From a virus (lineage: Duplodnaviria; Caudoviricetes): DNA of 64,000 nt. The stretch spans positions 64,001 to 128,000 of IMG/VR virus record IMGVR_UViG_3300009431_000002, one strand, 5' to 3'. A model generated the notes under the pieces. It saw only the letters and a list, made by a program, of their open reading frames with translations, ran no database searches and was not told where the DNA came from. Both the position numbers and the translations under genes were made by a program. The stretch's first letter is position 1; every line of letters begins with the position of its first letter. Shown here piece by piece: positions 12,846 through 58,420 of this stretch.

Positions 12846-13228
12846 TGGCAGTCATCCACCCCTTCATGCACGTCCCCACGTTCCTGGCCAAGGTCCTCGA
12901 GGAGGTCGAGGTCGACCAGACGACGTGGGAGGCCATCGCCGACGAGATGGGGCTCACGCCCCAGGACCTCGAGGACCTCGTGGTGTGGTGCCAGTCCAAG
13001 CACAAGGACACCCACCGCTTCTGCTGCTTCATGCGCCGTGCGTTCGCGCACGACGTCGAGGAGTGGGGCGTCTTCAACCCCTACGCCGACGGCGAGGCCT
13101 TCCCCGAGGAATGGAAGGAGCCCGCCGACGCCATCCGTGATGGCTGGGAGCCCTACAGCCACTCCAACTCCTCCCTCGAGGACCCACCCTGTGTGATAGA
13201 ACGTGTCTTCCTGCGGAGGCCGTGCTGA
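12845..13228 (+). CDS. hypothetical protein
   Basis: TGATG coupling at both ends. Confidence 0.7.
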   Translation: MAVIHPFMHVPTFLAKVLEEVEVDQTTWEAIADEMGLTPQDLEDLVVWCQSKHKDTHRFCCFMRRAFAHDVEEWGVFNPYADGEAFPEEWKEPADAIRDGWEPYSHSNSSLEDPPCVIERVFLRRPC

Positions 13229-44568: not shown

Positions 44569-45318
44569 TCACACACCAAATTCTGTATCGGTGTCCGGGC
44601 TATTGGCTAGCCCATAGTGCGCCAGGAACGCGATGTCGTTGAGCACCTCGAAGGGGGGCTTCTCGACATCACTCGCCCGTGGCTCACCAAACACCAGGTC
44701 GAGGGTGGTTCGCTGCGGCGGAACGGTGGGCGTCTCGCTCCACGTCCACTGCATGAACCAGGGAATGGTGACATCGACCATTACGGCCTCTGCCTCGGCG
44801 GATCCGTTGACGATGGCCCCCGGCGGCGTTTCGGGTCCGACAGCGGCCTTCTGTCCGATGTGGTGGAACCCACCTTCCTTCTGCAACAGGCGCCGATGGA
44901 AGACGGTTCCGCGGCTGACGAGGTCGGCGATCCTCCCGGCCTCCATCCCCGTCTCGGCGACGCAGTGCGCCACGAGGTTGCCGGGGATCAGGTCCGTGTG
45001 GGTGCGCTCACCCGTCATCGTGTTCATGGTCCGCAGCTTGTCCATGACGAGCCCGGACCACTCGTAGCCGCCGCGCATCACGACGATGTGCGGCTTCTGC
45101 GCGATGGCCTCCCGGTCGACGGGGGCCTCGGCGGTGATGATGATCTTGGAGTCGTGGTCGTCCGGCTCCCAGCGGAAGGCGTCGACGTGGAAGTGGTTGA
45201 AGAGCCCCTGCAGGAAGCACACGTACAGCCGGCGCGTCCAGTCACCGATGCCCTCGTAGGGGTCTCGGTAGCCCGAGTCCGGCGTGACGGGCGCGACGGT
45301 GGGGACTCTGGAGCTCAA
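44569..45318 (-). CDS. tail terminator/completion protein
   Basis: Directly upstream of the sheath; KPHIVVMRGGY...GNLVAHCVAETGMEAGRIA pattern. Confidence 0.55.
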   Translation of the reverse strand: MSSRVPTVAPVTPDSGYRDPYEGIGDWTRRLYVCFLQGLFNHFHVDAFRWEPDDHDSKIIITAEAPVDREAIAQKPHIVVMRGGYEWSGLVMDKLRTMNTMTGERTHTDLIPGNLVAHCVAETGMEAGRIADLVSRGTVFHRRLLQKEGGFHHIGQKAAVGPETPPGAIVNGSAEAEAVMVDVTIPWFMQWTWSETPTVPPQRTTLDLVFGEPRASDVEKPPFEVLNDIAFLAHYGLANSPDTDTEFGV

Positions 45319-45710
45319 GCTGTCTCCTCAGCGGCCGCGGCCTCGCGGCGCTTCCGGTCTTCGTGCATCTGCTGGTAGGCCTGGTGGCGATGATACCCGA
45401 GGGCGACGCCGCCGAGAGCTCCGCCTGCGGTCCCGAGGACCTTCAGCGCACGCGCCGCCGTGACCTGCTGTGCGGGGGTGAGGCCGTGCCAGAGTTCCGA
45501 GATGTGCGGCGCCTTGGACAGCGCGTAGTGGCCGGCGCCGCCACCGAGGTACCCGAGACCCACACCGAGGCCGACGGGCAGCCCCACGCGGCCCAACGGC
45601 TCCAGGACGCCGTAGCGGACGCCCTGCCAGAAGGTCGGGGCCTGCGGGTCCTCCGCACGCTCCTCGCCGATCTTCTGGAGCTCGTCGAAGAAGGCGCCGG
45701 TGTCGATCAT
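45315..45710 (-). CDS. putative internal head protein (FFDELQKIG tag, glycine zipper)
   Basis: MIDTGAFFDELQKIG; two GxxxG segments. Confidence 0.7.
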   Translation of the reverse strand: MIDTGAFFDELQKIGEERAEDPQAPTFWQGVRYGVLEPLGRVGLPVGLGVGLGYLGGGAGHYALSKAPHISELWHGLTPAQQVTAARALKVLGTAGGALGGVALGYHRHQAYQQMHEDRKRREAAAAEETA

Positions 45711-46414
45711 CACTCGTACTCCAGCCGCATCGTCTTCACTTCTGGGTTCGCCATCAGTGCCTTCGCCTTGTTGACGAACGCTTGCACCTGCCGGTCGTAG
45801 CTCTCCCGGTCCTCGATCCCGCCGAGGGCCTTCGGGTCCTGGCTGGCCCTCTGGTAGATGGCGAGCACCCTCTGCATGTCCTCGCGGGACAGATTCCGGA
45901 TCGTGGGGGTGTCGCCGTAGGACGTATCCGTGGTGCTCTCCCACAGCTCGTTGGCGGCGTTGGCCGCGATCCAGTCGTTGAGCTTGTAGTTCGTGCCCTT
46001 GTCGTGCGGGGTCCTCACCCGCAGGTCGCGCATGGCGAAGAACGAATCGTCGGGTGGGGGGTTGTCCTCGTAGTACTTGCGCCGCGCGCCGCGGTAGGCG
46101 TCGGCGGCCTGCTGCCAGTCCTGTTGCGCCTGCAGACTCTTCTTGGTCTGCTTGGCCTGCCCCCACGGCAGGAGGCGGAACCGCCGCTTGATCTCAGGCT
46201 TCTTGCCCGGCCACTGCGGTGCACCGACGAGGTCGGCCTCCATCTTCTTGTCGTAGGCGTCTCCGGCCGCCTCGAGGGGCGCAACGGCAGCCTCCGGATC
46301 CGGGACCGAGTAGCCATGAACGTCCCAGCCGACGCCGGCGACCTTGGCCATCAGCGGACCAGCACCGATCTTCTGGAGCTCGTCGAAGAAGGCCGCAATG
46401 GATGGGGAGCTCAC
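45710..46414 (-). CDS. putative internal head cargo protein (FFDELQKIG tag)
   Basis: GTGA overlap; SIAAFFDELQKIGAGPLMAKVAG followed by an unrelated globular body. Confidence 0.7.
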   Translation of the reverse strand: MSSPSIAAFFDELQKIGAGPLMAKVAGVGWDVHGYSVPDPEAAVAPLEAAGDAYDKKMEADLVGAPQWPGKKPEIKRRFRLLPWGQAKQTKKSLQAQQDWQQAADAYRGARRKYYEDNPPPDDSFFAMRDLRVRTPHDKGTNYKLNDWIAANAANELWESTTDTSYGDTPTIRNLSREDMQRVLAIYQRASQDPKALGGIEDRESYDRQVQAFVNKAKALMANPEVKTMRLEYE

Positions 46415-47313
46415 GGCATCCTCCACTGGTAGATGTCCAGGATCTCGTCCATCTCCATCTCCATGCCGTCGGACGACTCGATGGTCTGTGGGTTGATGAA
46501 GTCGCGGTTCACCAGCTGATCCCACTCCTGGAACTCGTCGGGCACGGGCAGCAGGAACTCGATGGAGCCAGGCGGAATCTTCCGCATCTGGATCTCCTGG
46601 TGGATCGGCGACCGCAGGCGCTTGGTCTTCGGTACCTTGGCGACGCGCCACCGGACGTTCTCGAGCTCGACGATCACGTCCTTGGGGGCGACGGGCGGGA
46701 AGAAGGTGCAGCGCGCACGCACCACCTGCTCCTGGCCCTCACCGAGCGCAGACGTCTGCACGTCGTCGGTCTCCGGGTCCACCTGCATCCAGAAGAGGAT
46801 GGGCGCGTGGTACCCGTGCATGAACGTGCCGCCGAAGCAGGCCTCGCAGCGCTTGGTGGTCTGCCGGCCCTGCCGCTCGTCGTAGCAGTGGGGGCAGCGA
46901 GGACCGAAGGTCCGGCGCTTGTACAGCAGGCACGGCCGGCCCGTGTGCTCGCGCAGCAGCGTCTCCTCGAACCGCGCGGCCTCCATGGCGTCGAGAGGCA
47001 GCGGCGGCTCCACGGACGCACCGTGGTTGTCCGGGAAGTCACGCTCCTCGCCCGAGGCCCGGTGGACCAGCCGCACGCGGTAGTACAGCTGCCGCCAGTT
47101 GTGGAGGAGCCCCGGCTGCGTGTCGCGGAACCAGTACAGGTCGCGCAGCGGCTCCGGCGTCAGCAGCGTGTAGGGGCCGAGCGGCGAGTCGACGGAGCGC
47201 AGGATGTACGTGTCGTAGTCCTGCGGGTCCTCAGAACTGGTCGAGATCTCCCAGAAGAGGTCGAGGCGATCCAGGTCGAAGGACCTGGCACGGATGTGGC
47301 GAACCTCGATCAA
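46411..47313 (-). CDS. neck/head-closure protein with Zn finger
   Basis: FN3-like N-terminus; RCPHCYD...RCEACFGGTFMHGY; PPVAPKDVIVELENVRWRV. Confidence 0.55.
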   Translation of the reverse strand: MIEVRHIRARSFDLDRLDLFWEISTSSEDPQDYDTYILRSVDSPLGPYTLLTPEPLRDLYWFRDTQPGLLHNWRQLYYRVRLVHRASGEERDFPDNHGASVEPPLPLDAMEAARFEETLLREHTGRPCLLYKRRTFGPRCPHCYDERQGRQTTKRCEACFGGTFMHGYHAPILFWMQVDPETDDVQTSALGEGQEQVVRARCTFFPPVAPKDVIVELENVRWRVAKVPKTKRLRSPIHQEIQMRKIPPGSIEFLLPVPDEFQEWDQLVNRDFINPQTIESSDGMEMEMDEILDIYQWRMP

Positions 47314-47322
47314 CCATGTCTC

Positions 47323-49041
47323 CTACGCCGTGAGCAGCTTCTGGTACGCCTCCGGGAGGTGGTTCTCCCAGCCGCCCTTGGCCAGGAGCCGCTCGTGGAC
47401 GGTGCTGGTCTTCTCCTCGTCCGCCTTGTCCTTCTTGATGGGCGTGCCGAACGGGACCTTGGTCGGCGTCTCGCCGCGCTCGTGCGCCCCGGCCATCTGG
47501 TGCATCCGGATGCCCTGGCCGGCGGTGCCTCCAACCAGTCCGGTGAGCGCGCCTGCGCCTGCGCCCAGCAGCGTGGACCGGAGATCGCCACCGTGCGACG
47601 CGCCGATCAGGCCGCCGCCCACTGCGCCACCGACGCCCATCGGCAGTCCGCTGCCCAGCCCGGCGGCCAGCAGTCGCCCACCGGGGCCGATCTCGGACGC
47701 GTACTGCTGGTAGTTGGCCAGGTTCTGCAGTGCCTCGGCCTCCGTCGGCCGCCCGGACTCCTGCACGGGTCCCGGGGCATCGAAGGCGCTGCGCCGTTCG
47801 CCCTCGGCGGCGCCGGTCTTCTCGCCGGCCCGCGCCAGCTCGGACTTCATCCGCTCGATGTACTCCAGGGCCTCGTCGCCCACCGGGGCGAAGGTGGCGC
47901 TCACGCTGGAGCCCAGCGGGGCCTTGCGGGGCGCCGGCATCCGGCTCATGTAGTCGGCCACCTCGTCCCGCCGCTCGGGGTTGCCGGCGTAGAACTCACC
48001 CAGGGCGCCCGGCATCTGCTGCAGGGCGTCCTCGATGTTGGACTCGCGGCGCTCGCGGAGCAGACGCTGCGTGCCGAGGGTGCCGATGGCACCACCAGCC
48101 ACCCCGGCCCCGAGGCCGAGCGCGCCGGCACCGACCGGGCCCAGCGCCTCCTTCTTCAGGTCGGGCTTCTCGGCGCCAGGCTTCTTGGGGTCCTGGGCCT
48201 CCTGGACCTTCTTGGCGTTCTCCTGCAGGGCCTCCATCATGTCGCCGTTGGCCGCCTTGACCAGGGCCTCGCTGAACGAGATCCCCTGCTGCTCGGCGTA
48301 GGCGGCGACCTTCTCCTGCATCTCCTTGTACGCCTCGGGCGTTGGCGCGCTCATCTTGGCCTTGGGCTTGGAGGGAGCCGGCCCCGCTGGGCCCGCGCCC
48401 GGGGGCATGGCGGGCATGCCGATGCCGCCCATCGCCGGCTGACCGGCCATCGGCACGGAGGGTCCCGGAGCGGGGGCCATCGGCGGGCCGCCTGCCGGCG
48501 GACCGGCTTCCGGGCCACCCATCCCCATGGCGTCCATGCCCATGCCAGCCGCGCCACCGGCCATGCCGCCGAGCGCTCCTCCGCCGGCCATGCCGGCCAG
48601 ACCGCCACCGACCCCGCCCACGACGGCGCCGCCGGGGCCACCGCCTGCCTGGATGCCGGCGCGGATGCCTCCGATCATCCCCAGCAGGGTGCCGGTGGCC
48701 GCGCCGAGCATGGTGCCGATCTGCGCGGGGCTCGGGGGCACGTCCTCGGTGATGGGAGCGGTCGAGTCCTCGGCCACCATCTCGGACGCCGGCATCTCAC
48801 CACCCTCCGGCGGCATGCCCTCGTCCATCATGGGCTCCTCCATCTCCGGCGGTGCGCCGGGGGTCGGAGGCGTGCCCGGGGGTACGGCCGGGGGCGGCTC
48901 CGGGAGCTGGAGGTCACCGGGGGCCATGGCGAGCTTCAGGAGGTCCTCCATCGACATCTCCTGGAGCATCTCCTGTCGAGACGCGCGCTTCTCGAGGGCG
49001 GCCTCTTCCTGGGCGGCGTCGTTCAGCCAACGGTCGAGCAT
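47323..49041 (-). CDS. putative internal head protein (Pro/Met-rich, glycine zippers, K-x-A motifs)
   Basis: LEKRAS, LLKLAM, EKVAA, KKEAL; several GxxxGxxxG segments. Confidence 0.7.
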   Translation of the reverse strand: MLDRWLNDAAQEEAALEKRASRQEMLQEMSMEDLLKLAMAPGDLQLPEPPPAVPPGTPPTPGAPPEMEEPMMDEGMPPEGGEMPASEMVAEDSTAPITEDVPPSPAQIGTMLGAATGTLLGMIGGIRAGIQAGGGPGGAVVGGVGGGLAGMAGGGALGGMAGGAAGMGMDAMGMGGPEAGPPAGGPPMAPAPGPSVPMAGQPAMGGIGMPAMPPGAGPAGPAPSKPKAKMSAPTPEAYKEMQEKVAAYAEQQGISFSEALVKAANGDMMEALQENAKKVQEAQDPKKPGAEKPDLKKEALGPVGAGALGLGAGVAGGAIGTLGTQRLLRERRESNIEDALQQMPGALGEFYAGNPERRDEVADYMSRMPAPRKAPLGSSVSATFAPVGDEALEYIERMKSELARAGEKTGAAEGERRSAFDAPGPVQESGRPTEAEALQNLANYQQYASEIGPGGRLLAAGLGSGLPMGVGGAVGGGLIGASHGGDLRSTLLGAGAGALTGLVGGTAGQGIRMHQMAGAHERGETPTKVPFGTPIKKDKADEEKTSTVHERLLAKGGWENHLPEAYQKLLTA

Positions 49042-49045
49042 GTCA

Positions 49046-50098
49046 TCACCTCACGGGTAGGGCGGCTGCGCCGCCGGCTCCCAGCACTGCCCCGGTCAGC
49101 GCGCCGAGCAACGCGGCCTTTCCCGGGTGGTCTACGTTCACGTCGGCGACGCCCTCGGAGGCGCGCGCCAGCACGGCGCCCAGCCTCTTGGCGTAGCCGG
49201 GGTCCTCGGTCTCGTCCAAGGCCCGCTCCGACTTCTCCCGGCCGAGCTCGGCCAGGGCTTGCTCCTTGCTCCTGCCGCTCATTGTAGGCCTGCTGAACGC
49301 GTACTGCCCAGCGCCTCCGAGCGCTGCACCCACGGGCGCGCCGATGATGGCACGCTGCATCCGGGGGTCCAGGGCCTGCCAGGCGGCCACGAGATCCTGG
49401 GCCGCGCTGGTCTTCACCGGCGACCGCTTGATCTTCGTGTCGGCCTCGTCGTGGGGCTCCCACGTCCTCCCCAGCAGGCCAGCACCAGCTCCTGCAGCCG
49501 TCGCCGCTCCGCCGGCGAGGCCGAGGGTGAGCAGCCCGCCCTTGACGGCCTGGGGCCCGAACTGCCTCACCAGCTCCTTGACGTGGGGCTTGACGGCCTG
49601 GCCGCCGGCGGACTCCGACACGCCCTTCAACCCCGAGAAGATCCCCTTCAGGGTGTCGTACTTCCCCATCATCATGCGGCCGGCGATCCCGCGCTGCCTC
49701 TGCCCTCCTGCCATGCCCTCGAGGCCGCCCTGCAGCATGCTGCCGACGCTGTGCTCGTCGAGGCTGTTGGCGAGTGCCGCAGCGGCCTGGGAGTGCATGG
49801 CGTCGCTGATGAGCCTGTCGAGGGCCTGCCCCCGCAGGTAGGCGACGCCTCCGCCCGCCGCAGCGCCCGCCGGGACACCGAGGGAGACGCCACGGAGCTC
49901 GCGTTCGTCGCCACCGCCGAAGTAGCCGCCAGCACCTCCGAGCACTGCGCCGAGAGCGGCATGGGGCACGGCCGTCGCCAGCGGGAGCCTGCGGAGCAGG
50001 TGCTTCCGCTTGTCCACCTCCCGGGCGAGGATCTCCTCGGGGCCTGGCGCGGCGTCCTCGGACATGGCTCCGGTGATGGCGCTGAACGGTCGGGTCAC
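49046..50098 (-). CDS. putative internal head protein with several glycine zippers
   Basis: GTGA overlap start; five Gly/Ala hydrophobic segments; VKTSAA. Confidence 0.7.
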   Translation of the reverse strand: MTRPFSAITGAMSEDAAPGPEEILAREVDKRKHLLRRLPLATAVPHAALGAVLGGAGGYFGGGDERELRGVSLGVPAGAAAGGGVAYLRGQALDRLISDAMHSQAAAALANSLDEHSVGSMLQGGLEGMAGGQRQRGIAGRMMMGKYDTLKGIFSGLKGVSESAGGQAVKPHVKELVRQFGPQAVKGGLLTLGLAGGAATAAGAGAGLLGRTWEPHDEADTKIKRSPVKTSAAQDLVAAWQALDPRMQRAIIGAPVGAALGGAGQYAFSRPTMSGRSKEQALAELGREKSERALDETEDPGYAKRLGAVLARASEGVADVNVDHPGKAALLGALTGAVLGAGGAAALPVR

Positions 50099-50592
50099 GA
50101 CTCCCACCCCCCGTACCAGCCGTGCGAGTACCAGATGTACTCGGAGTGGATGCCGCCGCCCCAGCCGGCGCGGATGTTGCGCGACGCCTTGAGCCGCAGC
50201 TTCTTGTGCTCATACTCGTTCGAGATGAGCTGGATCCACGCCATGATGGCCCGGCTCTTGTCGGTGTTGTACGAGAAGCCGCCGTCGGTGAAGGCGATGG
50301 CGTTGCGGGTGTTGAGCAGTCCCACCGACGTCAGGAGGTTCACCACGGTCCCCCGGAGCAGCAGGTGCATCGACGGGAAGGTCGAGACCGTCCAGGTGCC
50401 GATCTCCGGGGGCGTGGTGTTGAAGTCGTCGATGCAGTCCAGCACCGCCCAGGCGATCATGCGGTTGCTGCTCTCCTCACCCCGCGTGAGGCGGTTGAGC
50501 TGCGGGTGGTCACGCATGAACGTGCGTACCATCTTGACGACCTGCGCCAGGCGCTGGTCCTCGGATGGTGTGTAGCTGGACGGCGTGAGCAT
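50095..50592 (-). CDS. head-tail adaptor/neck protein
   Basis: Size and position downstream of the capsid gene; helical with DGGFSYN loop; aromatic C-terminus. Confidence 0.55.
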   Translation of the reverse strand: MLTPSSYTPSEDQRLAQVVKMVRTFMRDHPQLNRLTRGEESSNRMIAWAVLDCIDDFNTTPPEIGTWTVSTFPSMHLLLRGTVVNLLTSVGLLNTRNAIAFTDGGFSYNTDKSRAIMAWIQLISNEYEHKKLRLKASRNIRAGWGGGIHSEYIWYSHGWYGGWES

Positions 50593-50595
50593 CGA

Positions 50596-51120
50596 CTACT
50601 CCAGCAGCTCGTCGAGCTTCGTCAGCGGCGTCAGCTTGGAGCCGCCCTCGACCGCGAGGTCCACGGCGTCCTTGAGCTCGGTGAGCTTCATGCGGTCGCT
50701 GAGGAGCGGCGCCGGTCGGACGTACTTGGCGAACGCCAGCACGTCCTTCTTGGTCCGCATCTTCCGCATGGCCTCGAGGTATGGGGTGTAGTCGACAGCG
50801 GCGTCGCCGGTGTCCACCTCGTCGCGCTCCGCAGGCTCCGGCCGCCCCGGCGGCTTGTAGGCCTGCGCCGCGCGGCGCTGCTGGTCGATCTCGCGCTTGC
50901 GGCGGACGTACCAGGCCGGCGGGGTGGCGCCGACGTGGATGTCCCGAGCCTTCTGCATGCGCGCAAGTCGCGCGGTGTGGATGGGCCCGGCGATCTTGGA
51001 GACCGGGACCACCAGCCTACCGCCAGGCGGCACACGGACGCGGAAGATGGTCAGGGGCCGAGGCCTGTCCTGCACGTCCGTGAGGTTGTAGATGTTGGTC
51101 CGCTTGGTCTTCGCCGCCAT
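50596..51120 (-). CDS. head-associated protein with C-terminal Rho-N/LEM-like helical domain
   Basis: MRKMRTKKDVLAFAK...DRMKLTELKDAV. Confidence 0.6.
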   Translation of the reverse strand: MAAKTKRTNIYNLTDVQDRPRPLTIFRVRVPPGGRLVVPVSKIAGPIHTARLARMQKARDIHVGATPPAWYVRRKREIDQQRRAAQAYKPPGRPEPAERDEVDTGDAAVDYTPYLEAMRKMRTKKDVLAFAKYVRPAPLLSDRMKLTELKDAVDLAVEGGSKLTPLTKLDELLE

Positions 51121-51121
51121 C

Positions 51122-51844
51122 TCAGTCCTCCATCGACACGATCTTGGCGTCCAGGGCCTTCATGGCGCCGGTGCGGGTCTTGCCCGACTGCTCGGCGTCA
51201 CGCAGGGCCAGGACGTGGTCGGCGTCCTCGCAGGTCTCGAGGAAGGCCTCGAGGTCCCCGATGTTGCCGTCGAGGACCGACAGGTCGTAGGTGACCTCGA
51301 CCTCCTCGGGCTTCTCCTCGAGGTCTTCGGGCTCGTCGGTCTCCGCGGGCGCGCCCGGCCCCGTCTCCTCCCCCAGATCCCCCTCCTCTTCCCCGTCGGC
51401 CTGGGAATCCTCGCCGACATCGGCGTCCTTCTCCTCGGGTGGGTCCTCGAGGTCGTCCAGGCCGACAGGCTCGTCCGCGTCCTCGTCGACCTCCTTCTCG
51501 GCCGGCTCCTCGGGCTCCGGCGGCACGAGCGCCTCCATGTGCAGCGCCGTGAACCGGGCACCGTCGCCGGCCTGCAGGGCCTCGATGGCCTCCTGCCGCT
51601 TGGCCGGGTCCTTGAAGTCGTCGAACAGTTCGGTCAGGTCCGGGCCGGGCTCCGGCTCCGACGACACTGTGTCGTCGACCTCCGGCACGACCTCCTGGAT
51701 GAAGCCGTTCTTGGTCAGGTGTTGGATGTGTCGCCGATCCTTCTTCGCGTCCGCGTCCGAGACGGGGAGCGGTACGGATCCCAGGCACTTGCCTGCGATG
51801 GCGATGTTGGGCGGAGCGCCCGCGAGCTTGCGGTAGTACTTCAT
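51122..51844 (-). CDS. acidic head-associated protein with C-terminal helical domain
   Basis: E/D/P-rich linker; LDGNIGDLEAFL...AEQSGKTRTGAMKALD. Confidence 0.65.
   Translation of the reverse strand: MKYYRKLAGAPPNIAIAGKCLGSVPLPVSDADAKKDRRHIQHLTKNGFIQEVVPEVDDTVSSEPEPGPDLTELFDDFKDPAKRQEAIEALQAGDGARFTALHMEALVPPEPEEPAEKEVDEDADEPVGLDDLEDPPEEKDADVGEDSQADGEEEGDLGEETGPGAPAETDEPEDLEEKPEEVEVTYDLSVLDGNIGDLEAFLETCEDADHVLALRDAEQSGKTRTGAMKALDAKIVSMED
51659..51677. repeat. CGACAC-W-GTGTCG palindrome (intragenic)
   Basis: CGACGACAC-T-GTGTCGTCG, perfect 19 bp. Confidence 0.75.
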
Positions 51845-51878
51845 GATGGGGTCCCTCTCTCCTCTGCTTCCGAGGGCC

Positions 51879-51919
51879 CCCGCCCCCGCGCCGCCGCGCG
51901 GGTTGGGAGCGGGGGCGGG
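51879..51919 (-). terminator. GC-rich hairpin downstream of the major capsid gene
   Basis: CCCGCCCCCGC / GCGGGGGCGGG 11-bp stem; no U-tract, so possibly a stabiliser or attenuator. Confidence 0.45.
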
Positions 51920-51950
51920 ACCCCGGTAGAACGTCAGGCCACTGGCCTGA

Positions 51951-53072
51951 TCAGAACTGGTTGACCTGCGGGTACGTCAGGCCATCCTCGGCACGGTTGT
52001 TCATCGCGCCCAAGTCCTCGATATCGACGGGCTGACGATCGGCGAAGTTCGCGTCCTCCGCGCCCGTCGTGACGGAACCGCGGTAGAGCTCGAGCTTGCG
52101 GACTGCGGCGATGTTGCCGAAGCCCATGCCGATATCTTCCCACGCCTGCCAGAAGATCCGGTTGGCGCGCTTGTCGATGTAGAACTTCGTCTGGTTCAGG
52201 ATGTAGAACCGGCCGAAGAACTCGGGCTTGGTGAAGATGTAGACGTTGCCATCCCGCAGGATGTCCGTCTTGATCGTCCGGATGAAGTTGGTGCCGAGGA
52301 GCATGTTGTACTTGTAGCCGTCGACCACGGTCTCGGACTGGATCTTGTCCCCGAAGTCCTCGACGGTCCACTGCAGCACGTCCTCGAAGTCCGGCTCGGA
52401 CATGAGCATGCGCTCGGGCCGCAGGCGGTTGCGGCTCAGGAGCTTGCGCAGGTTGACGATGTCCGGCCGCAGGATGGGCCGCACCTCGAAGTCGTCCACG
52501 CCACCGAGGGTCAGGGCGTTGAGGCCCTTCACGCGGGACACGCCGACCACGGTGCCGTTGTTGACGTTGGTGCGGTTGAAGGCGACGGTGCCGTTGGTCT
52601 CGAACTGCAGCGCCTCGATGCAGGCCTCCACGTGGAGCAAGAACTCGCGGTCCTCGATCTCCTGGATGTCCTTGGCGCTGTTGTCCTCGATCACCTTCGT
52701 GATCGGCATCTCGTACGCCAGCAGCTCCTGCTCCGTCTTCTCGAACTTCTCCGAGGAGATGGTGAAGAAGGGGATGGCGTACCGCGGCGCGCTGATGTAC
52801 CGCGCGGTCGGCTGGCCCCGGAAGGTCAGCGGCATGGCGCGGGACTGCGGCTCGATGTCCACGATCCGCACGAGCGTGTCGTGGTTCTCGGACCGCTGGC
52901 ACTCGTTGCGGGTGATGGGGGTGGGCGGGACCACCTTGCGCGCGAAGCTGACCTCACGCAGGTGGTCACGGATGAAGGTGCCGCCGTACTCGGCGATCTT
53001 CTCTTTGCCCTCGGCGGTCTCCAACTTGCGGTTGAAGAGCTCGTTGAGGACCTCGGCGGGGGTGCTGGACAT
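51951..53072 (-). CDS. major capsid protein
   Basis: 373 aa, downstream of protease/scaffold/decoration genes; IRDHLREVSFARKVVPP...YAIPFFTISSEKFEK...IQEIEDREFL; followed by a hairpin. Confidence 0.75.
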   Translation of the reverse strand: MSSTPAEVLNELFNRKLETAEGKEKIAEYGGTFIRDHLREVSFARKVVPPTPITRNECQRSENHDTLVRIVDIEPQSRAMPLTFRGQPTARYISAPRYAIPFFTISSEKFEKTEQELLAYEMPITKVIEDNSAKDIQEIEDREFLLHVEACIEALQFETNGTVAFNRTNVNNGTVVGVSRVKGLNALTLGGVDDFEVRPILRPDIVNLRKLLSRNRLRPERMLMSEPDFEDVLQWTVEDFGDKIQSETVVDGYKYNMLLGTNFIRTIKTDILRDGNVYIFTKPEFFGRFYILNQTKFYIDKRANRIFWQAWEDIGMGFGNIAAVRKLELYRGSVTTGAEDANFADRQPVDIEDLGAMNNRAEDGLTYPQVNQF

Positions 53073-53132
53073 GTTGTGTCCTCCTCGACTCGGTTCGTTG
53101 GTCCTACGACCCTTGGTTGAGCCCTTCAGGGC

Positions 53133-53642
53133 CTAGCTGGGCACTCCGACGATGCCGCGGATGCGTCCGTGCACGGCGTCGATGTGCGTCAGGCGTGCGA
53201 CGACCAGCCCGGCACCGGCGCCCACCTGGTCGGCCAGGACGCGGCGGATCACGCCGGCGCCTGCCAGGTCGAAGTCGATGACGGTCAGGGCGTTGTTGGT
53301 GTCGAGGTCGAGGCCGGTGTCGTCGTAGACGTCCGTCTCGAACTCGTAGAAGCTCGGGAGCAGCACGTGCCCCATGCCACCGTTGATGGCCTGGGCGTCG
53401 TAGCGTCCCTCCTCGAGCCAGAAGCAGTACTGCGGCCGCGCGGCCACGTCTGCGGTGGCGTCGTTGTTGTCCCCTCCGCGGCGGAGGTTCCAGTCGTCGT
53501 CGTACTCCAGCCACTCGCCCTCGACGAGCGAGCGCCCGTCCTGGGGCCACAGGGGCCGGTGTCCGGCAGCGTCGCCGGTGCCGGCGACCACACGACGGTC
53601 CCGCGTGGGGAGCGTCTCGTACTCGGTGATCAGTCGAAACAT
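53133..53642 (-). CDS. capsid decoration/cement protein (putative)
   Basis: Small acidic beta protein immediately upstream of the capsid gene. Confidence 0.5.
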   Translation of the reverse strand: MFRLITEYETLPTRDRRVVAGTGDAAGHRPLWPQDGRSLVEGEWLEYDDDWNLRRGGDNNDATADVAARPQYCFWLEEGRYDAQAINGGMGHVLLPSFYEFETDVYDDTGLDLDTNNALTVIDFDLAGAGVIRRVLADQVGAGAGLVVARLTHIDAVHGRIRGIVGVPS

Positions 53643-53682
53643 GGTGCGTCCTCCATCGGCTCAGTGAGCCGAGTCGTTGCTG

Positions 53683-54054
53683 CTAGTCCTCGTCCAGGAT
53701 GAAGGCCTCCAGCTGGGTCTTGCCCGCGCCGGCGACCTTCTCTTCGCCGTCGCCCAGCTCGAAGAAGGGGACGTCGCCCGCGGCCATGCCGATGGCTTCC
53801 TCCCTCGTGGAGAGCTTGTCGGGCTCGGACAGGAGCTCGGCCGTCTTGGTGCCGACGTCGTCCTCGTCGATGAGGCCCTTCTGCGCCATCTTGTCCGCGA
53901 GTGCGGCGGCGCGCTTCTCCAGCTTGAGCTGTGCGTTCTCCACCCGGAGCTGCTCGTTCTCGGACTCGAGGTCGCTCGCCCGCTTGGTCAGAACGCGCAA
54001 GGCGCCCGGGACCTGCTTGAAGACGGTGTGTGCCTGCTGCCGGTCGATGGTCAT
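53683..54054 (-). CDS. scaffold-like coiled-coil head protein
   Basis: Coiled coil; five K-x-A motifs; acidic C-terminus LEAFILDED. Confidence 0.6.
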   Translation of the reverse strand: MTIDRQQAHTVFKQVPGALRVLTKRASDLESENEQLRVENAQLKLEKRAAALADKMAQKGLIDEDDVGTKTAELLSEPDKLSTREEAIGMAAGDVPFFELGDGEEKVAGAGKTQLEAFILDED

Positions 54055-54066
54055 CGTCGGTACCTC

Positions 54067-55767
54067 CTACACCGTCGCCGGGACGTCCGGCGCGGCGGCG
54101 GGGGCCACAGGCTCCCCGGTTCCCTCGCCCTCGGCGCGAGCCGCGGACTCCAGGATGTCTGCGAACTGCTGCTCGGACCGCTCCGTCTGCTGACGGTCGG
54201 CCTCGTCGGGATCCTCCACGTCCGAGGCGGGTGGCACCTCGTCCATGGGGTTGTCGGCGAGCTTCGCCATCGCCTGCTTCAGCGCAGCCTCCTTCTCCGG
54301 GCCGTCGTCACCGGCGAGGACACGTCGGAGGAGCTCACGCGCCGCGTCGGCCTCGATGGTGCCGTCGGACGCGATCTTCGCTCCCGCGGAGTCCACCACG
54401 GGGCCGAGGTTCTCGTGGAGCTTGGAGTCGGTCGCCTTCGACTGGGCCGGCTCGTCCAGGACCTTGCCCATGTCCTTCTTGGGCTCGGCCTTTGCCTCCC
54501 GCTTGGTGTACTGGATGGCGGCGTCGTTGGAGCCGACCATCTTGTCCTGCCCGCGGGTCTTCTTCTCGGGGACGCCCTCGCCCGCCTCGGTGCCCGGGAA
54601 GTCGCCACCGTCCACGGTGGTGCCTCCCTTGCCGGCGGAGGGCTTGGCGCCGGAGTTGTCCTCGGCCAGCTTCCGCAGCACGAAGTCCACGAGGGGGCTC
54701 CGGCCGCGGACGGAGGCCGTGACCTCCTGGCCACCGCCCAGCACGGAGGCGCCGCCGGCGCCGAGCGCGCCGAGGCCGGCCACGCCACCGGCGCCCTTGC
54801 CGACGGCCTTGGCGCCCTCACGGCGGGCCTGCTGCTGGAGCTCCGGGATCTGCCCGGTGATGGCAGCCAGGGCCTCGTCGCCGAAGCCGCGCCGGCCCAT
54901 GTCGCCGGCCATCTCGCCGGCCTCACCGGCCTGCTCCAAGAGCTCGCGGCGGAGGGCCAGGTTCTCCAGCGGGTTGACGGCCTTGACGGCCTTGCCGCCG
55001 GCGCCCTGGATCGCCTGCAGGATCTCGGCTGGGCCGGCCTGCTTGACCATCACGCGGGCGTAGCGTGTGGGGATGCCCTGGGCCTCCAGTGCGGCCTGGG
55101 CCTCCTTGAACACGCCCTCGTCCGGGTAGCCGGCGGTGGGCACGGAGCCGGAGTTGCCGCCCGGCGCCTGGTTCTCGTCGGTCTCCATGGCGGTGGACGA
55201 CGAGCCGGCGGCGAGCTCGGGGCTCTCCAGCGGCGTCTCGTTGGGGATGGTGGTGGTCTTGGCCTTGTCGTGCTTGTAGGGCTGCTCGCCCGCACCACCC
55301 GGAGCATCCTCCTGGGTGTTGGCCATGGCGTTGCTGGGCGCCGGGGACTCCTGGAGCCCCTTGCCCGTGGCGGGCTTCATCGGCGGCGTCAGGTCCGCCG
55401 GCGCGTTGCCGGCGTCCTTGGTGTCGGTCTTGAGGGCCGTCTTCTCGTAGCCCATCAGCTCGGCGACGATGAGGGCCTCGGCGACCTTCTCCTCGTTGGA
55501 GCGGCCGTCGACGATCTCGTCGAGGTGGTCGTTCGCGTACTCCACCGCACCCGCGAGCTTGTCGAAGTACGCGTAGTCGAGCTCCGCGGACTTCTCCTCA
55601 CCCTCGTCCTTCTTGACGAAGGGCGGCACGTCCTTCTTGTCCTTGGGCTTGTCCTCGGCCTCGCCCTCGTCCGCCTCGGCGGTCTTCTGCATCCGCTCGT
55701 GGCCGCGGTGGTAGGCGTCCTTGAGCATCTCGGTGAGCTGGAAGCCGTGGGTGGTGCTTTCGGGCAT
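54067..55767 (-). CDS. scaffold/internal head protein
   Basis: Low complexity; at least 10 K-x-A motifs; one glycine zipper. Confidence 0.65.
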   Translation of the reverse strand: MPESTTHGFQLTEMLKDAYHRGHERMQKTAEADEGEAEDKPKDKKDVPPFVKKDEGEEKSAELDYAYFDKLAGAVEYANDHLDEIVDGRSNEEKVAEALIVAELMGYEKTALKTDTKDAGNAPADLTPPMKPATGKGLQESPAPSNAMANTQEDAPGGAGEQPYKHDKAKTTTIPNETPLESPELAAGSSSTAMETDENQAPGGNSGSVPTAGYPDEGVFKEAQAALEAQGIPTRYARVMVKQAGPAEILQAIQGAGGKAVKAVNPLENLALRRELLEQAGEAGEMAGDMGRRGFGDEALAAITGQIPELQQQARREGAKAVGKGAGGVAGLGALGAGGASVLGGGQEVTASVRGRSPLVDFVLRKLAEDNSGAKPSAGKGGTTVDGGDFPGTEAGEGVPEKKTRGQDKMVGSNDAAIQYTKREAKAEPKKDMGKVLDEPAQSKATDSKLHENLGPVVDSAGAKIASDGTIEADAARELLRRVLAGDDGPEKEAALKQAMAKLADNPMDEVPPASDVEDPDEADRQQTERSEQQFADILESAARAEGEGTGEPVAPAAAPDVPATV

Positions 55768-55770
55768 GGT

Positions 55771-56046
55771 TCACCTCACGCTCGGGGGCTGTAGGCCTTT
55801 GCCCATGTCGCCCGCCGGGGTGTTCTTGATGGGGGACTCCAGGCGCATCGGAGGTGCCAGCGACGGCCCCTTCACGCCCTTCACACTGGGGATGGCTCCA
55901 CTACGAGGAGACTGCACGAGCTTGGGCGCCGACGAGGTGGGGGATGTCAGTCCTGGCATCTTCGCACTCAACGCGATCTTCTCCAGCTCGTCGACGAACC
56001 CGGCCACCACTACGGGGTTGGCCGTCTTCGTCAGCTCCTTCAGCAC
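55771..56046 (-). CDS. small internal head protein (FVDELEKIA tag)
   Basis: LTKTANP..AGFVDELEKIALS; Pro/Lys-rich tail. Confidence 0.6.
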   Translation of the reverse strand: MLKELTKTANPVVVAGFVDELEKIALSAKMPGLTSPTSSAPKLVQSPRSGAIPSVKGVKGPSLAPPMRLESPIKNTPAGDMGKGLQPPSVR

Positions 56047-56055
56047 CGCGCTCCT

Positions 56056-56715
56056 CTACTGGAGCAGGTGGCCGTAGCCGTTGGCCTGCAACAGCTGCGC
56101 GGCGGCCTGGTCGATGCGGTCCTGCTGCGAGGGCTGCTCCGGCGCGGCCGCGGTCTTGGCGGTCTCGCAGTCGCCCTTGCAGTCCGCCTTCAGGCACCGG
56201 CACAGCTGGTTGGCGGCGACCTTCTCGGCCAGGAACTCGTTGGCGCGGGCGGTGGCCAGCTCGACGAGCAGCGGGTCGGCCTGCGGCTGCTCGGGCTGGG
56301 CCTGCGCGGCCGCGGCGGTCTTCTGGATGACGTCCAGCTCGTTGACGAAGGCGTGGGCCATCTGCCGGCCGAGCAGATCCGCCTCGGCCATCTCGGCCGC
56401 GGCCTTCTTCTCCTCGTCGTTCATCGGCGGGCCCTCGTCCTTCTTCTCGTCCTTCTTCTCCTCGTCCTTCTCCTCCTTCTTGGGCGGGAAGGGGGGAGCG
56501 GGCGGCGCGTCGGCCGGGGCCTCCTCGGCCGCTACCTTCTTGAGGTAGTGCTGGAAGGTGGCCTGGACCTGGGCGTCGGACATCTGCGAGATGTCGTAGC
56601 CGTCGGCCGAGGCCAGCTTGTCCAGCGCGTCGTAGACGGCCTGCTGGTCGACCTGCTCCTGGTTGCGGGCGTGGCCGTAGGCCGCTGCGAGGACCGGGTT
56701 CATCTGGTCGGGCAT
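56056..56715 (-). CDS. scaffold/internal head protein
   Basis: DKLAS, KKVAA, QKTAA, EKVAA, AKTAA; AFVNEL. Confidence 0.7.
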   Translation of the reverse strand: MPDQMNPVLAAAYGHARNQEQVDQQAVYDALDKLASADGYDISQMSDAQVQATFQHYLKKVAAEEAPADAPPAPPFPPKKEEKDEEKKDEKKDEGPPMNDEEKKAAAEMAEADLLGRQMAHAFVNELDVIQKTAAAAQAQPEQPQADPLLVELATARANEFLAEKVAANQLCRCLKADCKGDCETAKTAAAPEQPSQQDRIDQAAAQLLQANGYGHLLQ

Positions 56716-56728
56716 TTCCTCTTGCTCC

Positions 56729-58420
56729 TCATGCTGGCTGCGCTGAGGCTAGCTTCACCGCCAGCTGTGGGTTGCTCTGAACGATTCGTTCTCCAAGCTC
56801 CGGGCCCAGCCTCTTTCCCGCATCCCAGTGTGCACGGACGAGGTACACGACGGGGCCTGACGAGAACAATCCTGCCAGCGGCCCACCCTCAATGGCAACA
56901 GGCTTTCGCCCGAAAAGCTCAGCGAGGGGGTCCAACTGGTCGGTTGGTAGCCCAAAGTGTGGTTGCGCAGTTTCCCGTGCCAGCAGGGAGAGCAGAGCTC
57001 TCCTGTACCCGTTGTAGGCCCGAGAGATCTCACTCAACAGCGGGTTGTCCGCGTAGTTCGGGGCCGAGGGCTTGGGCACTTCCATGCGGATGATGACGGT
57101 CAGCCTCTTCTTCAGGGGGCCGCCGAACATCGAACGGCCGCCGACCAGTGGGGCCAGCAGCTCCTGCAGGTCTGGCGCGTGGCCAGAGAGGGACGGGCAC
57201 TCGCCCATGTCCATGCACGGCTTGAATACGCTGCCGGCGGAGTCAAGCTCGTCGGCCAGCGGCTTGTTGCCGCAGCGGACCAAGGTGATGCGCTGGAACT
57301 CACGGGGCGTCAGCACGATCCCCATGCGGCCAGCAGTCCCCAGGGCGGTCCCGAGGTCCGACGACACTGTGTCGTTTGGCGCCGCCATCCGGTCGAGGAC
57401 CTTGGAGGGCAAGGGCTTCTCGGTCTTCTCCAACAGGGGGACGGCGTGTCCGGCGGCCTGGCTGGGCGGCAGCTCCTTGATGATGTCGGCGAGCTTCTGC
57501 TGACTGGCCGTCTTCGGGCTGTCCGCCACCATCTCCTGGAGCGCCTCCGCGTACGCGCCCGCGGTCTTCTCGTACCCGAGATCCGCAGCGCGCTCTGCTG
57601 ACGGCGCGGAGAGGGTGCCGGGCTTGACCACGACGAACGTCCTCTTGCCTGACGCCAGCAGTGCCATCACCTTGGCAGTCCTGTCCGCTCCGATCAAGAC
57701 GTACGAGATGTCGAAGAACCGCGGGTGCGGGTTCCACACGAAGATCTGCTGGCCGTCCGGCAGGATCATGTTGGGCCGGTACCGCGGGTCCTTGCGGCTC
57801 ATGTGCTCGCAGTAGTCAGCCCGAGTCTTGGACTTGTGGCCGCAGATCGAGCACACGTCGTACTTGACCCGGCAGCCCATGCTCACCGGCAAGTACTCGC
57901 CCCGCTCCAGGCGCTCGATGATGTCGTAGCCGCCGGCCTGGCGGCACAGGCCGTGGTCCAGCTCCTGGACCAGCTCGACCCGCTTCATCAGGTCGTTCCA
58001 CACCGCCAGCACGACGTCGCCGTACTTCGGGTGGTTGTGCGGCGGGTAGGGCTTGTTCTTGTGGTGCCGGAACGCGTTGGCCAGGTAGAAGGTCGTGTAC
58101 CCGTAGGGCGCGTGCGCGGCGAGACGCCGGCGGCCCTCGATGTCCCAGGGCGGGACGTTGCGCCAGCCCGGCGGCTCCAGCTTCAGGGAGTCGATGCTGA
58201 ACCCGTCGGCGTTGATGTTGGGGCCCCAGATCTCTGTGGCTCCCAGCGCGTTGACCAGTGCGTAGGTCTTGTCGGGCTTCGGCTCCAGCTTGGCGATGAA
58301 CTGCTGCACCTCGTCGTGCAGGGGCGCCGCGGTCTTCACGAGACCGGGCTCACCTGGAGTGACGAGCTGGGAGTAGACGCCCCGCTCGTCCTCCCCCTGG
58401 TAGTGCAGCAGCTTGATCAT
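56729..58420 (-). CDS. prohead maturation protease (HK97/herpes-fold, Zn insertion) with C-terminal extension
   Basis: FRHHKNK...GDVV; LPVSMGCRVKYDVCSICG...YCEH; NPHPRFFDISYVLIGAD. Confidence 0.7.
   Translation of the reverse strand: MIKLLHYQGEDERGVYSQLVTPGEPGLVKTAAPLHDEVQQFIAKLEPKPDKTYALVNALGATEIWGPNINADGFSIDSLKLEPPGWRNVPPWDIEGRRRLAAHAPYGYTTFYLANAFRHHKNKPYPPHNHPKYGDVVLAVWNDLMKRVELVQELDHGLCRQAGGYDIIERLERGEYLPVSMGCRVKYDVCSICGHKSKTRADYCEHMSRKDPRYRPNMILPDGQQIFVWNPHPRFFDISYVLIGADRTAKVMALLASGKRTFVVVKPGTLSAPSAERAADLGYEKTAGAYAEALQEMVADSPKTASQQKLADIIKELPPSQAAGHAVPLLEKTEKPLPSKVLDRMAAPNDTVSSDLGTALGTAGRMGIVLTPREFQRITLVRCGNKPLADELDSAGSVFKPCMDMGECPSLSGHAPDLQELLAPLVGGRSMFGGPLKKRLTVIIRMEVPKPSAPNYADNPLLSEISRAYNGYRRALLSLLARETAQPHFGLPTDQLDPLAELFGRKPVAIEGGPLAGLFSSGPVVYLVRAHWDAGKRLGPELGERIVQSNPQLAVKLASAQPA
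57361..57375. repeat. CGACAC-W-GTGTCG palindrome (intragenic)
   Basis: ACGACAC-T-GTGTCGT, perfect 15 bp. Confidence 0.7.

Follow-up and report, generated by a model that had tools for sequence, protein, structure and literature searches.

In phage T4, diverse internal proteins bear an N-terminal propeptide of 10–20 residues, the capsid-targeting sequence (CTS), which targets them to the prohead core and is removed by the prohead protease gp21 (PMC3012670, PMC5694885), as an earlier sequence-only reading of the DNA analyzed here had stated. T4- and phiKZ-type proteases cut after Glu, and in phage SPN3US an identical 15-residue N-terminus on gp53 and gp54 has been noted as CTS-like (PMC5694885). 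In the jumbo phages phiKZ, 201phi2-1 and SPN3US, which have a virion RNA polymerase, a gp21-like protease processes many internal proteins; their propeptides mostly exceed 100 residues, lack a shared tag and are cleaved at (A/S/G)-x-E. The T4 CTS reads MKTYQEFIAE and is cut after Glu. Encapsulins, which are not viruses, use short, portable cargo-loading peptides that direct unrelated cargo into an HK97-fold shell via a flexible linker; these peptides mostly lie at the C-terminus, follow another consensus and are not cleaved off by a protease. In herpesvirus assemblin the maturation and release sites follow (V/L/I)-x-A↓S.

The window (the whole stretch of 64,000 nucleotides that was analyzed) lies within one phage contig of 201,921 bp and 67% GC, that of an uncultivated jumbo phage of 202 kb, in which a compact ten-residue peptide, [A/G/S]-F-x-D-E-L-x-K-I-[A/G/S], usually preceded by M-[N/D]-x-[I/V]-x-x-x, recurs at the start of otherwise unrelated proteins. 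This tag resembles the T4 CTS (of IPI-III, Alt and gp24) in being an N-terminal peptide of 10–20 residues on diverse proteins, in having bearers that include both enzymes and small proteins, and in its link to a gp21-fold prohead protease. Capsid and core proteins also contain the short motif, which would be a further likeness if it is indeed the site of the protease. It differs in that the candidate P1 residue of the cleavage site is Ala or Gly, after K-(I/T/V), in that about 10% of copies are internal, and in that far more putative cargo families are involved. The tag logo F-x-D-E-L-x-K-I-A shows no sequence similarity to the T4 CTS; on present sequences the tag is an analogue of the T4 CTS and not a homologue. 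Unlike phiKZ, 201phi2-1 and SPN3US, this phage has one compact motif across unrelated proteins. With encapsulin peptides the likeness is that of a short portable peptide on unrelated cargo, and with herpesvirus assemblin it extends to a related protease fold, a candidate motif that ends in Ala plus a small residue and sites that flank the protease domain, although the motifs diverge in detail and cleavage in the phage is a prediction.

At least 288 contigs in IMG/VR encode this capsid protein. The phages of this large, uncultivated clade have genomes of 175–210 kb, and several of the contigs are complete. Homologues of the locus and strict motif copies were counted in 80 related loci, the closest relatives being L001 and L069, each with a capsid-protein identity of 85% to this phage. 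No phage in culture was found to carry the tag; the nearest cultured one is Salmonella phage Arash (capsid identity 29%), in which the core D-E-L-x-K-[IV]-[AG] was not found. A virion proteome exists for Arash (PMC10585845) and was rejected as proxy evidence because Arash lacks any copy of the motif core. A Pfam search gave no match for the 19 proteins of the window's structural block, in which PHROGs identified the capsid protein and, by a weak match, the protease, and nothing else; for ten further proteins outside the window PHROGs gave nothing useful and named no portal or tail gene. The features needed below are as follows, in window positions unless stated otherwise.

45315–45710, minus strand: gene P1, 131 aa by translation, an N-terminal tag followed by a glycine-zipper body
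45667–45695, minus strand: tag-coding 29-mer of P1 (AFFDELQKIG, residues 6–15)
45710–46414, minus strand: gene P2, 234 aa, with tag, remnant of an older tag and body
46365–46393, minus strand: tag-coding 29-mer of P2 (AFFDELQKIG, residues 8–17)
51951–53072, minus strand: major capsid protein, 373 aa, phrog_2522 match
53683–54054, minus strand: coiled-coil scaffold-like protein, 123 aa, with EEKVAG at residues 104–109
54067–55767, minus strand: p566, an acidic low-complexity protein with MQKTA (residues 26–30), EEKVA and YEKTA
55771–56046, minus strand: small disordered Pro/Lys-rich protein, 91 aa, tag at residues 16–25
56056–56715, minus strand: p219, with the long motif variant AFVNELDVIQKTAA internal (residues 122–135, nt 56311–56352)
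56729–58420, minus strand: prohead maturation protease, 563 aa, identified by a phrog_18299 match and a fold match
Genome positions 921–1403, 1400–1759, 141439–141861 and 141871–142656: further N-terminal motif copies
Genome positions 152240–153178: motif variant

In six-frame translation of the contig the strict pattern F-x-[DN]-E-L-x-K-[IVT]-[AG] occurs seven times, every copy on the strand of the virion genes and no more than 20 residues from a start, compared with about 0.01 copies expected by an estimate from amino-acid composition. A reversed-pattern control gave no matches in five relatives that have two to seven copies each of the true motif. Across the 80 related loci all 35 strict copies fall on the coding strand, mostly 2–9 residues past the start codon, and a motif scan of IMG/VR found matches in at least 117 stretches, and of 130 matches listed 113 lie no more than 14 residues from a start. 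Internal or C-terminal copies make up about 10%; they fit a processing or docking site and not a strictly N-terminal address. Within N-terminal tags the first half (F-x-D-E-L) and the second are equally invariant, and no conservation was found in the residues after the tag. The scan of the genome and its relatives that the earlier reading had proposed gave N-terminal copies before heterogeneous bodies. The idea of a head-cluster tag holds in part: there are copies in the head cluster, but the motif is not confined there, as the four further N-terminal copies listed above show. The neighbors of the first two of these are large, unannotated genes, tail- or baseplate-like in look, not head genes. 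A tag-like ORF at 12663–13424 lies outside the virion blocks.

BLAST sorts the 194 distinct tagged proteins of the related DNA retrieved into 107 clusters, and among these proteins are different Pfam families (SNF2 helicases, a glyoxalase and GNAT fusion, a weak MazG-like match), which upholds the claim that the tag is portable and sits on unrelated bodies. Membrane-like peptides with a glycine zipper are frequent among the tagged bodies. Of five further contigs with the tag, four have both the capsid family and the protease family; the fifth has neither, and its match is internal. Judging by these contigs, the tag is restricted to phages with this capsid and protease. A match in a transketolase (L171) was set aside as chance, since it falls inside the Pfam domain, and one in a 332-kb contig (L143) is probably chance as well. 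Searches of literature full text for the motif strings found no relevant paper.

The adjacent genes P1 and P2 share AFFDELQKIG through the identical 29-mer CCGATCTTCTGGAGCTCGTCGAAGAAGGC, which occurs exactly twice in the window, as had been reported from the sequence, and no such repeat arose in 100 shuffles. Their bodies belong to different BLAST clusters, and none of the 80 related loci, L001 and L069 included, has a homologue of P2, while its neighbor P1 has orthologues in L069, L001, L059 and L049; the two are unrelated in body, again as first described. In L069 and L001 the tag of the P1 orthologue is split, AAFHDEL-SRILS-LEKVA. P2 consists of the tag, a 9-residue remnant of an older tag (GPLMAKVA) and a body running GVGWDVHGY...RLEYE, and its homologues elsewhere (P0004–P0007) have other tag variants directly before GVGWD. 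A model of P2 (mean pLDDT 77) found no match at E ≤ 0.001 in a Foldseek search against the PDB, and the ESM Atlas gave no usable lead. Read from these sequences, P2 is a lineage-specific insertion carrying a copy of the P1 tag upstream of its own family's degenerate tag. Because P2 is absent from the closest relatives and its family carries variant tags, the sequences indicate that tags are exchanged between genes, in agreement with the claim of acquisition by recombination. The exact repeat had been given weight of its own here; its existence stands, but as evidence it is weak when taken alone. Codon bias in this genome is so extreme that an identical peptide would be encoded by identical codons about 10% of the time, so the 29-nt identity adds little beyond the identity of the peptide and was rejected as strong proof of recent recombination.

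The small protein at 55771–56046 carries the tag as claimed, GFVDELEKIA at nt 55972–56001, preceded by the half-motif KELTKTA at residues 3–9, and its GTG start has a Shine-Dalgarno sequence, AGGAG, upstream. In about 30 relatives its orthologue lies directly upstream of that of p566, and every one of these orthologues begins with a tag and has a conserved PPP(N)V motif at its C-terminus. The related motif that had been assigned to 56056–56715 is present but is not N-terminal; in all relatives of p219 checked it is likewise internal, with 108–168 residues upstream in the same ORF. Internal translation starts at a conserved Met before two internal motifs were considered and dropped, as there is no Shine-Dalgarno sequence.

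The second half of the tag, as (E/Q)-K-(I/T/V)-A, shows an enrichment of about 12-fold in proteins of the virion block (16 observed vs 1.3 expected), compared with 2 observed vs 1.5 expected in proteins elsewhere. The same enrichment is seen in relatives in the protease, p566 and the capsid protein; p169 and p165 in relatives show none. Orthologues of p566, which is probably a scaffold or core protein, conserve REK[LT]A, EKTSS/EKTAS and VEKLASA, and the N-terminus of the capsid protein has EGKEKIA, with K25 and A27 invariant in 24 relatives (alignment A2). The RNA polymerase of the same block (2048 aa) has neither tag nor short motif, which would mean, should this enzyme be packaged, that proteins can also enter the virion without the tag.

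The protease is named in PHROGs by a weak match (E 2e-4), and its sequence found no match among PDB sequences. In a structural model a catalytic domain (about residues 32–266) is followed by a helical domain, and the best structural match is T4 gp21 (5jbl; Z 8.4, 132 residues aligned, rmsd 2.9 Å), followed by herpesvirus proteases. Conserved segments in alignment A1 are AHHRNKD (HH), DVSMGCKV (VSMG) and DYCEHA (CEH), so that fold and His-Ser-His residues occur together in the expected order, with a catalytic triad that we presume by analogy with known proteases. As modeled, a protease of the T4 gp21/assemblin fold is encoded in the head module. Of its K-T-A sites, residues 285–287 are invariant and 29–31 nearly so (A1), and K29, A31, K285 and A287 lie in modeled disordered segments flanking the catalytic domain. 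A complex prediction for the capsid protein, protease residues 32–270 and P1 residues 1–40 scored 0.00, which argues neither for nor against binding.

The reading that we prefer, with a probability of about 0.5, is that the tag is an amphipathic-helix propeptide acting like the T4 CTS in head targeting and protease processing. Its steps, from docking and cleavage at a given scissile bond to packaging and injection, we infer from sequence. During prohead assembly the tag would dock on a conserved part of the head-assembly core and bring its protein with it; the gp21-like protease would recognize the second half of the tag, hydrophobic-x-K-(I/T/V)-(A/G), the same short motif that may mark sites conserved in p566, in the N-terminus of the capsid protein and in the protease itself; and once the tag is removed, the cargo would stay in the capsid until it is delivered together with the DNA. 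The sole register fitting both motif classes places Ala or Gly at the candidate P1 position, which counts against this reading, as T4- and phiKZ-type proteases cut after Glu. Other points against it are the internal and C-terminal copies, the lack of conservation after the tag, the untagged polymerase, the two tagged genes among tail- or baseplate-like neighbors, the tag-like ORF outside the virion blocks and the absence of the motif core from Arash. By recombination genes may acquire the tag, drop it or exchange it, of which P1 and P2 with their 29-nt repeat are possibly a recent case, and such changes would be easy because only about 10 codons are needed. A stronger version, which we offer more tentatively and think somewhat doubtful, is that the one compact address F-x-D-E-L-x-K-I-A suffices to load any protein into the capsid, with the tag clipped by the head protease and a cassette of about 30 nt moving between genes.

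The motif could instead be only a recognition or cleavage site of the maturation protease, a propeptide boundary without a targeting role, on proteins that enter the prohead otherwise. This would explain why half-motifs stand at conserved positions of p566, of the capsid protein N-terminus and of the linkers of the protease, and why there are internal copies such as those of the p219 family and of the SNF2 protein at residue 641. However, F-x-D-E-L is invariant in N-terminal tags and missing from the internal sites of protease and p566, which suggests that it does something extra; an N-terminal extension on more than 100 unrelated proteins merely for removal would have no obvious purpose; and T4 uses the same kind of peptide for both jobs (PMC5694885). 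We consider this explanation unlikely, if the most serious of those opposed to a targeting propeptide. Slightly less likely again is an unremoved helix that docks on another partner, such as the portal, the tail or ejection apparatus, a phage chaperone or an intracellular compartment. The position of two tagged genes among large tail- or baseplate-like genes, the many glycine-zipper, membrane-like bodies and the lack of a conserved residue after the tag are consistent with such a helix, but the tag co-occurs with this capsid and protease family, its second half is the motif enriched in protease, capsid and scaffold-like proteins, and SNF2, GNAT and MazG-like enzymes are likelier as internal cargo than as tail parts.

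Two further explanations fare much worse. That the tagged genes are diverged paralogues of one family, the tag being its best-conserved N-terminal segment and not portable, might be thought of where many tagged proteins are small, of low complexity and hard to compare, and certain BLAST clusters that share a genomic position are plainly orthologues that have diverged. It is very improbable given the different Pfam folds among the bodies, the lack of P2 homologues in the closest relatives, a P2 family that joins a conserved body to different tag variants and an SNF2 helicase whose motif is N-terminal in L124 and at residue 641 in this genome. That the repeat acts at the level of nucleotides, for instance as a signal for translation initiation or as a regulatory RNA signal, with peptide conservation secondary, would suit an exact 29-nt copy right after two start codons, yet relatives keep the amino acids fixed while synonymous positions vary freely (TTT/TTC, GAT/GAC, CTN/TTG, AAA/AAG), codon bias alone would yield that identity at the frequency given above, and the motif also occurs inside long ORFs; this we regard as the least probable of all. 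By these sequences the constraint acts on the tag peptide and not on the DNA.

The importance of a CTS-like role for the tag is tempered by the fact that the CTS principle is already 30 years old. On the stronger and more doubtful version, in which the address alone suffices, the whole injected proteome would be readable from metagenomes as more than 100 unrelated families, among them SNF2 helicases, acetyltransferases and pyrophosphohydrolases, and the tag would be reusable to package foreign proteins. If the tag is a head-loading address, it would show the T4 CTS principle at work a second, independent time and with another protease specificity, and the packaged or injected proteome of a widespread uncultivated clade would become predictable from sequence alone, yielding a list of candidate early-acting effectors such as anti-defense proteins or a transcription kit. 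These phages would then recruit new cargo by swapping only about ten codons.

Two adjacent, translationally coupled genes, P1 (45315–45710, minus strand, 131 aa) and P2 (45710–46414, minus strand, 234 aa), encode AFFDELQKIG a few residues past their starts in the same 29-mer, as the sequence-only reading had described; the 29-mer occurs exactly twice in the window (45667–45695 and 46365–46393) and in none of 100 shuffles. P1 is a glycine-zipper peptide and P2 a mixed helix/strand protein (AlphaFold model, mean pLDDT 77), for which comparison of the model with the PDB gave no structural match. Codon usage in this genome is extremely biased (TTC 98%, AAG 98%, ATC 97%), such that two independent encodings of AFFDELQKI would give identical DNA about 10% of the time. 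The two tags also agree at all four variable positions (chance about 0.004, estimated from logo frequencies), and all other tags of the genome differ among themselves; this agreement is more telling than the 29-nt identity. A further tag was confirmed in 55771–56046 as GFVDELEKIA at residues 16–25, the ORF starting at GTG behind an AGGAG ribosome-binding site, and a half-copy, KELTKTA, preceding the tag. The N-terminal motif claimed for 56056–56715 was misplaced, AFVNELDVIQKTAA lying at residues 122–135; in the relatives that were checked the motif of this family is likewise internal, with 108–168 residues upstream within the same ORF, so the label "N-terminal" is wrong for that gene.

These genes belong to a virion module, a block on the minus strand that spans roughly 30–60 kb of the window; the window is itself bases 64001–128000 of a single 201,921-bp contig of 67% GC (a virus record). 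Coordinates are those of the window unless marked genome.

Features placed by family or domain match
51951–53072, minus strand, major head protein (PHROG phrog_2522, E 1.4e-7)
56729–58420, minus strand, head maturation protease (weak PHROG family match, E 2e-4)
61817–63586, ORF with terminase GpA ATPase domain (domain match)

The Pfam search gave no match for the remaining structural proteins of the block. Between head and neck genes there were two large Gly/Ala/Pro-rich proteins (47323–49041, 572 aa, and 49046–50107, 353 aa), very fast-evolving and with homologues detectable in just 1–2 of 80 related loci; the former contains MQEKVAA and an N-terminal DLLKLAMA. The small protein 55771–56046 and its orthologues (for example L015:7666–7956 and L059:7424–7717, from relatives) are disordered and Pro/Lys-rich, lie just upstream of p566, the acidic and probable scaffold or core protein, and are conserved at both ends, with the tag at the N-terminus and PPP(N)VVFGVR or QPPPV at the C-terminus, an arrangement which suggests a tether linking two partners.

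A six-frame scan of the genome for F-x-[DN]-E-L-x-K-[IVT]-[AG], the strict motif, found seven copies, each of which is on the minus strand, that of the virion genes, and lies no further than 20 residues from a start, against an estimated expectation from amino-acid composition of about 0.01 per genome. Three of these N-terminal copies are inside the window.

Tag copies and variants outside the window
genome 921–1403, minus strand, N-terminal copy
genome 1400–1759, minus strand, N-terminal copy
genome 141439–141861, minus strand, N-terminal copy
genome 141871–142656, minus strand, N-terminal copy
genome 152240–153178, variant FEDELEKQA at gene head
genome 132230–134818 (L083:4230–6818), minus strand, internal in-frame copy MQAAFDDEMEKIS at residue 641 of an 862-aa SNF2 helicase
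genome 12663–13424, minus strand, K-I-K variant heading a 253-codon ORF that starts PAFVDELCKIKEAA

The helicase matches Pfam SNF2-rel_dom and Helicase_C, and no Shine–Dalgarno sequence precedes its internal MQAAFDDEMEKIS; unlike this copy, the tag is N-terminal in the SNF2 helicases of relatives L124 and L190. The 253-codon ORF has atypical codon usage (GC3 0.75), adjoins the tRNA region, and shows no visible ATG, GTG or TTG start upstream of its motif.

Relatives of the capsid protein occur in at least 288 IMG/VR stretches, complete relatives being 175–210 kb, and from these we retained 80 loci with capsid identity of 62–85%. They carry 35 strict copies, every one on the coding strand and most of them 2–9 residues past the start, and each of five near-complete relatives has 2–7, the reversed-pattern control giving none. 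In IMG/VR the pattern A-F-x-D-E-L-x-K-I-[AG] matched at least 117 stretches, and among the matches listed 113 of 130 lay no more than 14 residues from a start. When extended, the logo reads M-[ND]-x-[IV]-x-[LYM]-[AS]-A-F-x-D-E-L-x-K-I-A-[AGS], with no conservation downstream of it; its hydrophobic residues F, L and I follow an i, i+4, i+7 spacing, and in the AlphaFold model of P2 a helix of low confidence (pLDDT about 50–60) covers the tag. There were also copies at the other end of proteins: one C-terminal in an ORF of L093 (G001:C1:73513–76538, minus strand) that ends in SSFLDELSKIAALH, and four more within 40 residues of a stop. When five further tag-bearing contigs from outside the top capsid matches, low-GC ones included, were tested, capsid and protease families were both present in four; the other (332 kb) had neither, and the start nearest to its motif lies 49 residues away. 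The nearest cultured relative is Salmonella phage Arash, whose virion proteome is published (PMC10585845); its capsid protein has 29% identity, and the phage contains no copy of D-E-L-x-K-[IV]-[AG].

There is evidence that genes exchange tags. No P2 homologue was found in the 80 related loci, and in the closest relatives, L069 and L001, the P1 orthologue directly follows the p300 orthologue, which makes P2 an insertion of this lineage. In the wider P2 family (P0004–P0007) the body is conserved from GVGWD.HGY to a C-terminal RLEYE and different tag forms precede it.

Sequence before GVGWD in P2 homologues
P0005, AFQDELQKIA
P0004, TFKKIA
P0006, YFIKTA
P0007, LIDNLYEMQKTASIEKTA

P2 of the present genome reads AAFFDELQKIG-AGPLMAKVA-GVGWD, its full tag being the same as that of its neighbor P1, and the AGPLMAKVA downstream looks like what is left of the tag of the P2 family itself. 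A split tag, AAFHDEL-SRILS-LEKVA, heads the P1 orthologues of L069 and L001, which indicates that the halves of the motif are separable and that the P1 N-terminus, too, was remodelled in the present genome. On another contig, one P2 homologue adjoins a gene for a 2061-aa fused RNA polymerase, so the P2 family also moves within genomes. Its members, here including L109, share an invariant K-x-A before GVGWD.HGY and a central TNYKLN block, and some have glycine-zipper inserts.

A direct sequence link exists between the tag's second half and the adjoining protease. In 22 aligned orthologues of this 563-aa protein AHHRNKD, DVSMGCKV and DYCEHA are conserved, the serine of VSMG being Ser180, and its AlphaFold model has a confident domain (residues 32–266) that in structural comparison best matches gp21, the capsid assembly protease of T4 (5jbl: Z 8.4, 132 residues, 2.9 A); a series of herpesvirus proteases comes next (Z 5–7). 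In the same alignment K29/A31 (FEKTAS) are nearly invariant and K285/A287 (EKTAS) invariant, these sites flanking the catalytic domain in segments modelled as disordered, and the linker holds more EK(V/T)A repeats. Residues 324–483 form a well-modelled helical C-terminal domain, conserved in relatives (GLGIVL.PREFQR, AAYNGYR), which could be a scaffold- or cargo-binding part. The capsid protein N-terminus has EGKEK[IVTL]A, in which K25 and A27 do not vary, and p566 orthologues contain REK[LT]A, EKTSS/EKTAS and VEKLASA. The present genome has 16 copies of [EQ]K[ITV]A in minus-strand proteins of the virion blocks, by our own delimitation of these, versus 1.3 expected by shuffling, and two in all other proteins versus 1.5 expected.

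Copies of [EQ]K[ITV][AS] per protein in relatives, with expectation from shuffling
protease, 1.8 versus 0.12
p566, 1.28 versus 0.14
capsid protein, 0.76 versus 0.07
p169 and p165, 0–0.01 versus 0.01

Neither the tag nor [EQ]K[ITV]A was found in the 2048-aa RNA polymerase of the virion block. An InPase-domain pyrophosphatase (genome 135075–136052, L083:7075–8052, minus strand; Pfam PF18823, E 1e-35) that shares its minus-strand block with the RNA polymerase contains ALEKVAK. Because one register, hydrophobic-(E/Q/x)-K-(I/T/V)-(A/G), accommodates the tags and the protease, capsid and p566 sites, we take the tag's second half to be a candidate recognition motif of the protease.

An alternative explanation could be that the repeat is a nucleotide-level element, but residues stay fixed between relatives as synonymous codons vary freely, which indicates constraint on the peptide and not the DNA, and the evidence rejects it almost entirely. 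That the tag marks one diverged paralogue family is scarcely more credible, and is likewise rejected: the heterogeneity of bodies claimed earlier stood up, the 194 distinct N-terminally tagged bodies in all fetched DNA (median about 104 residues) forming 107 single-linkage BLAST clusters, including 84 singletons. Some clusters are divergent orthologues at one position, such as the Pro/Lys-rich protein upstream of p566. Judged by Pfam, the predicted folds behind the tag are genuinely different.

Tagged bodies identified in relatives
L124 and L200, SNF2 helicases of two architectures (Pfam)
L098, MazG-like protein (weak Pfam match)
L166, glyoxalase–GNAT fusion (Pfam)

A transketolase subunit (L171:7835–8770, starting MRTAFVDELCKIAEDHPEL) on a 55-kb "viral" contig was rejected as a chance match within its Transket_pyr domain; motif-only searches therefore yield some false positives.

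The best reading, to which we give a probability of roughly one half, is that the tag would serve two roles, as docking peptide and as processing site. A processing site only is a good deal less likely; internal motif copies favor it, yet the first half of the tag is equally invariant and is absent from the protease's own sites. Slightly more doubtful again is that the tag docks some other partner and stays uncleaved. For the dual role the closest known system, by analogy, is the T4 capsid targeting sequence, a 10–20 residue N-terminal propeptide of diverse internal proteins which directs them to the prohead core, is then removed by gp21, and can load the head with foreign proteins (PMC3012670, PMC5694885). 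Anatomically the tag is the same, and the same kind of protease adjoins the tagged genes, although the sequences are unrelated, and T4- and phiKZ-type proteases cleave on the C-terminal side of Glu (PMC5694885). The register common to the tag and the short-motif sites suggests Ala or Gly at the P1 cleavage position. Such a pattern would be closer to herpesvirus assemblin sites than to cleavage after Glu. A literature search for the tag motif found no paper mentioning it. The principle is already known; this variant of it is new, and stands out by how clean its motif is, by the very wide range of its candidate cargo, and by the direct link in sequence to the protease's own sites.
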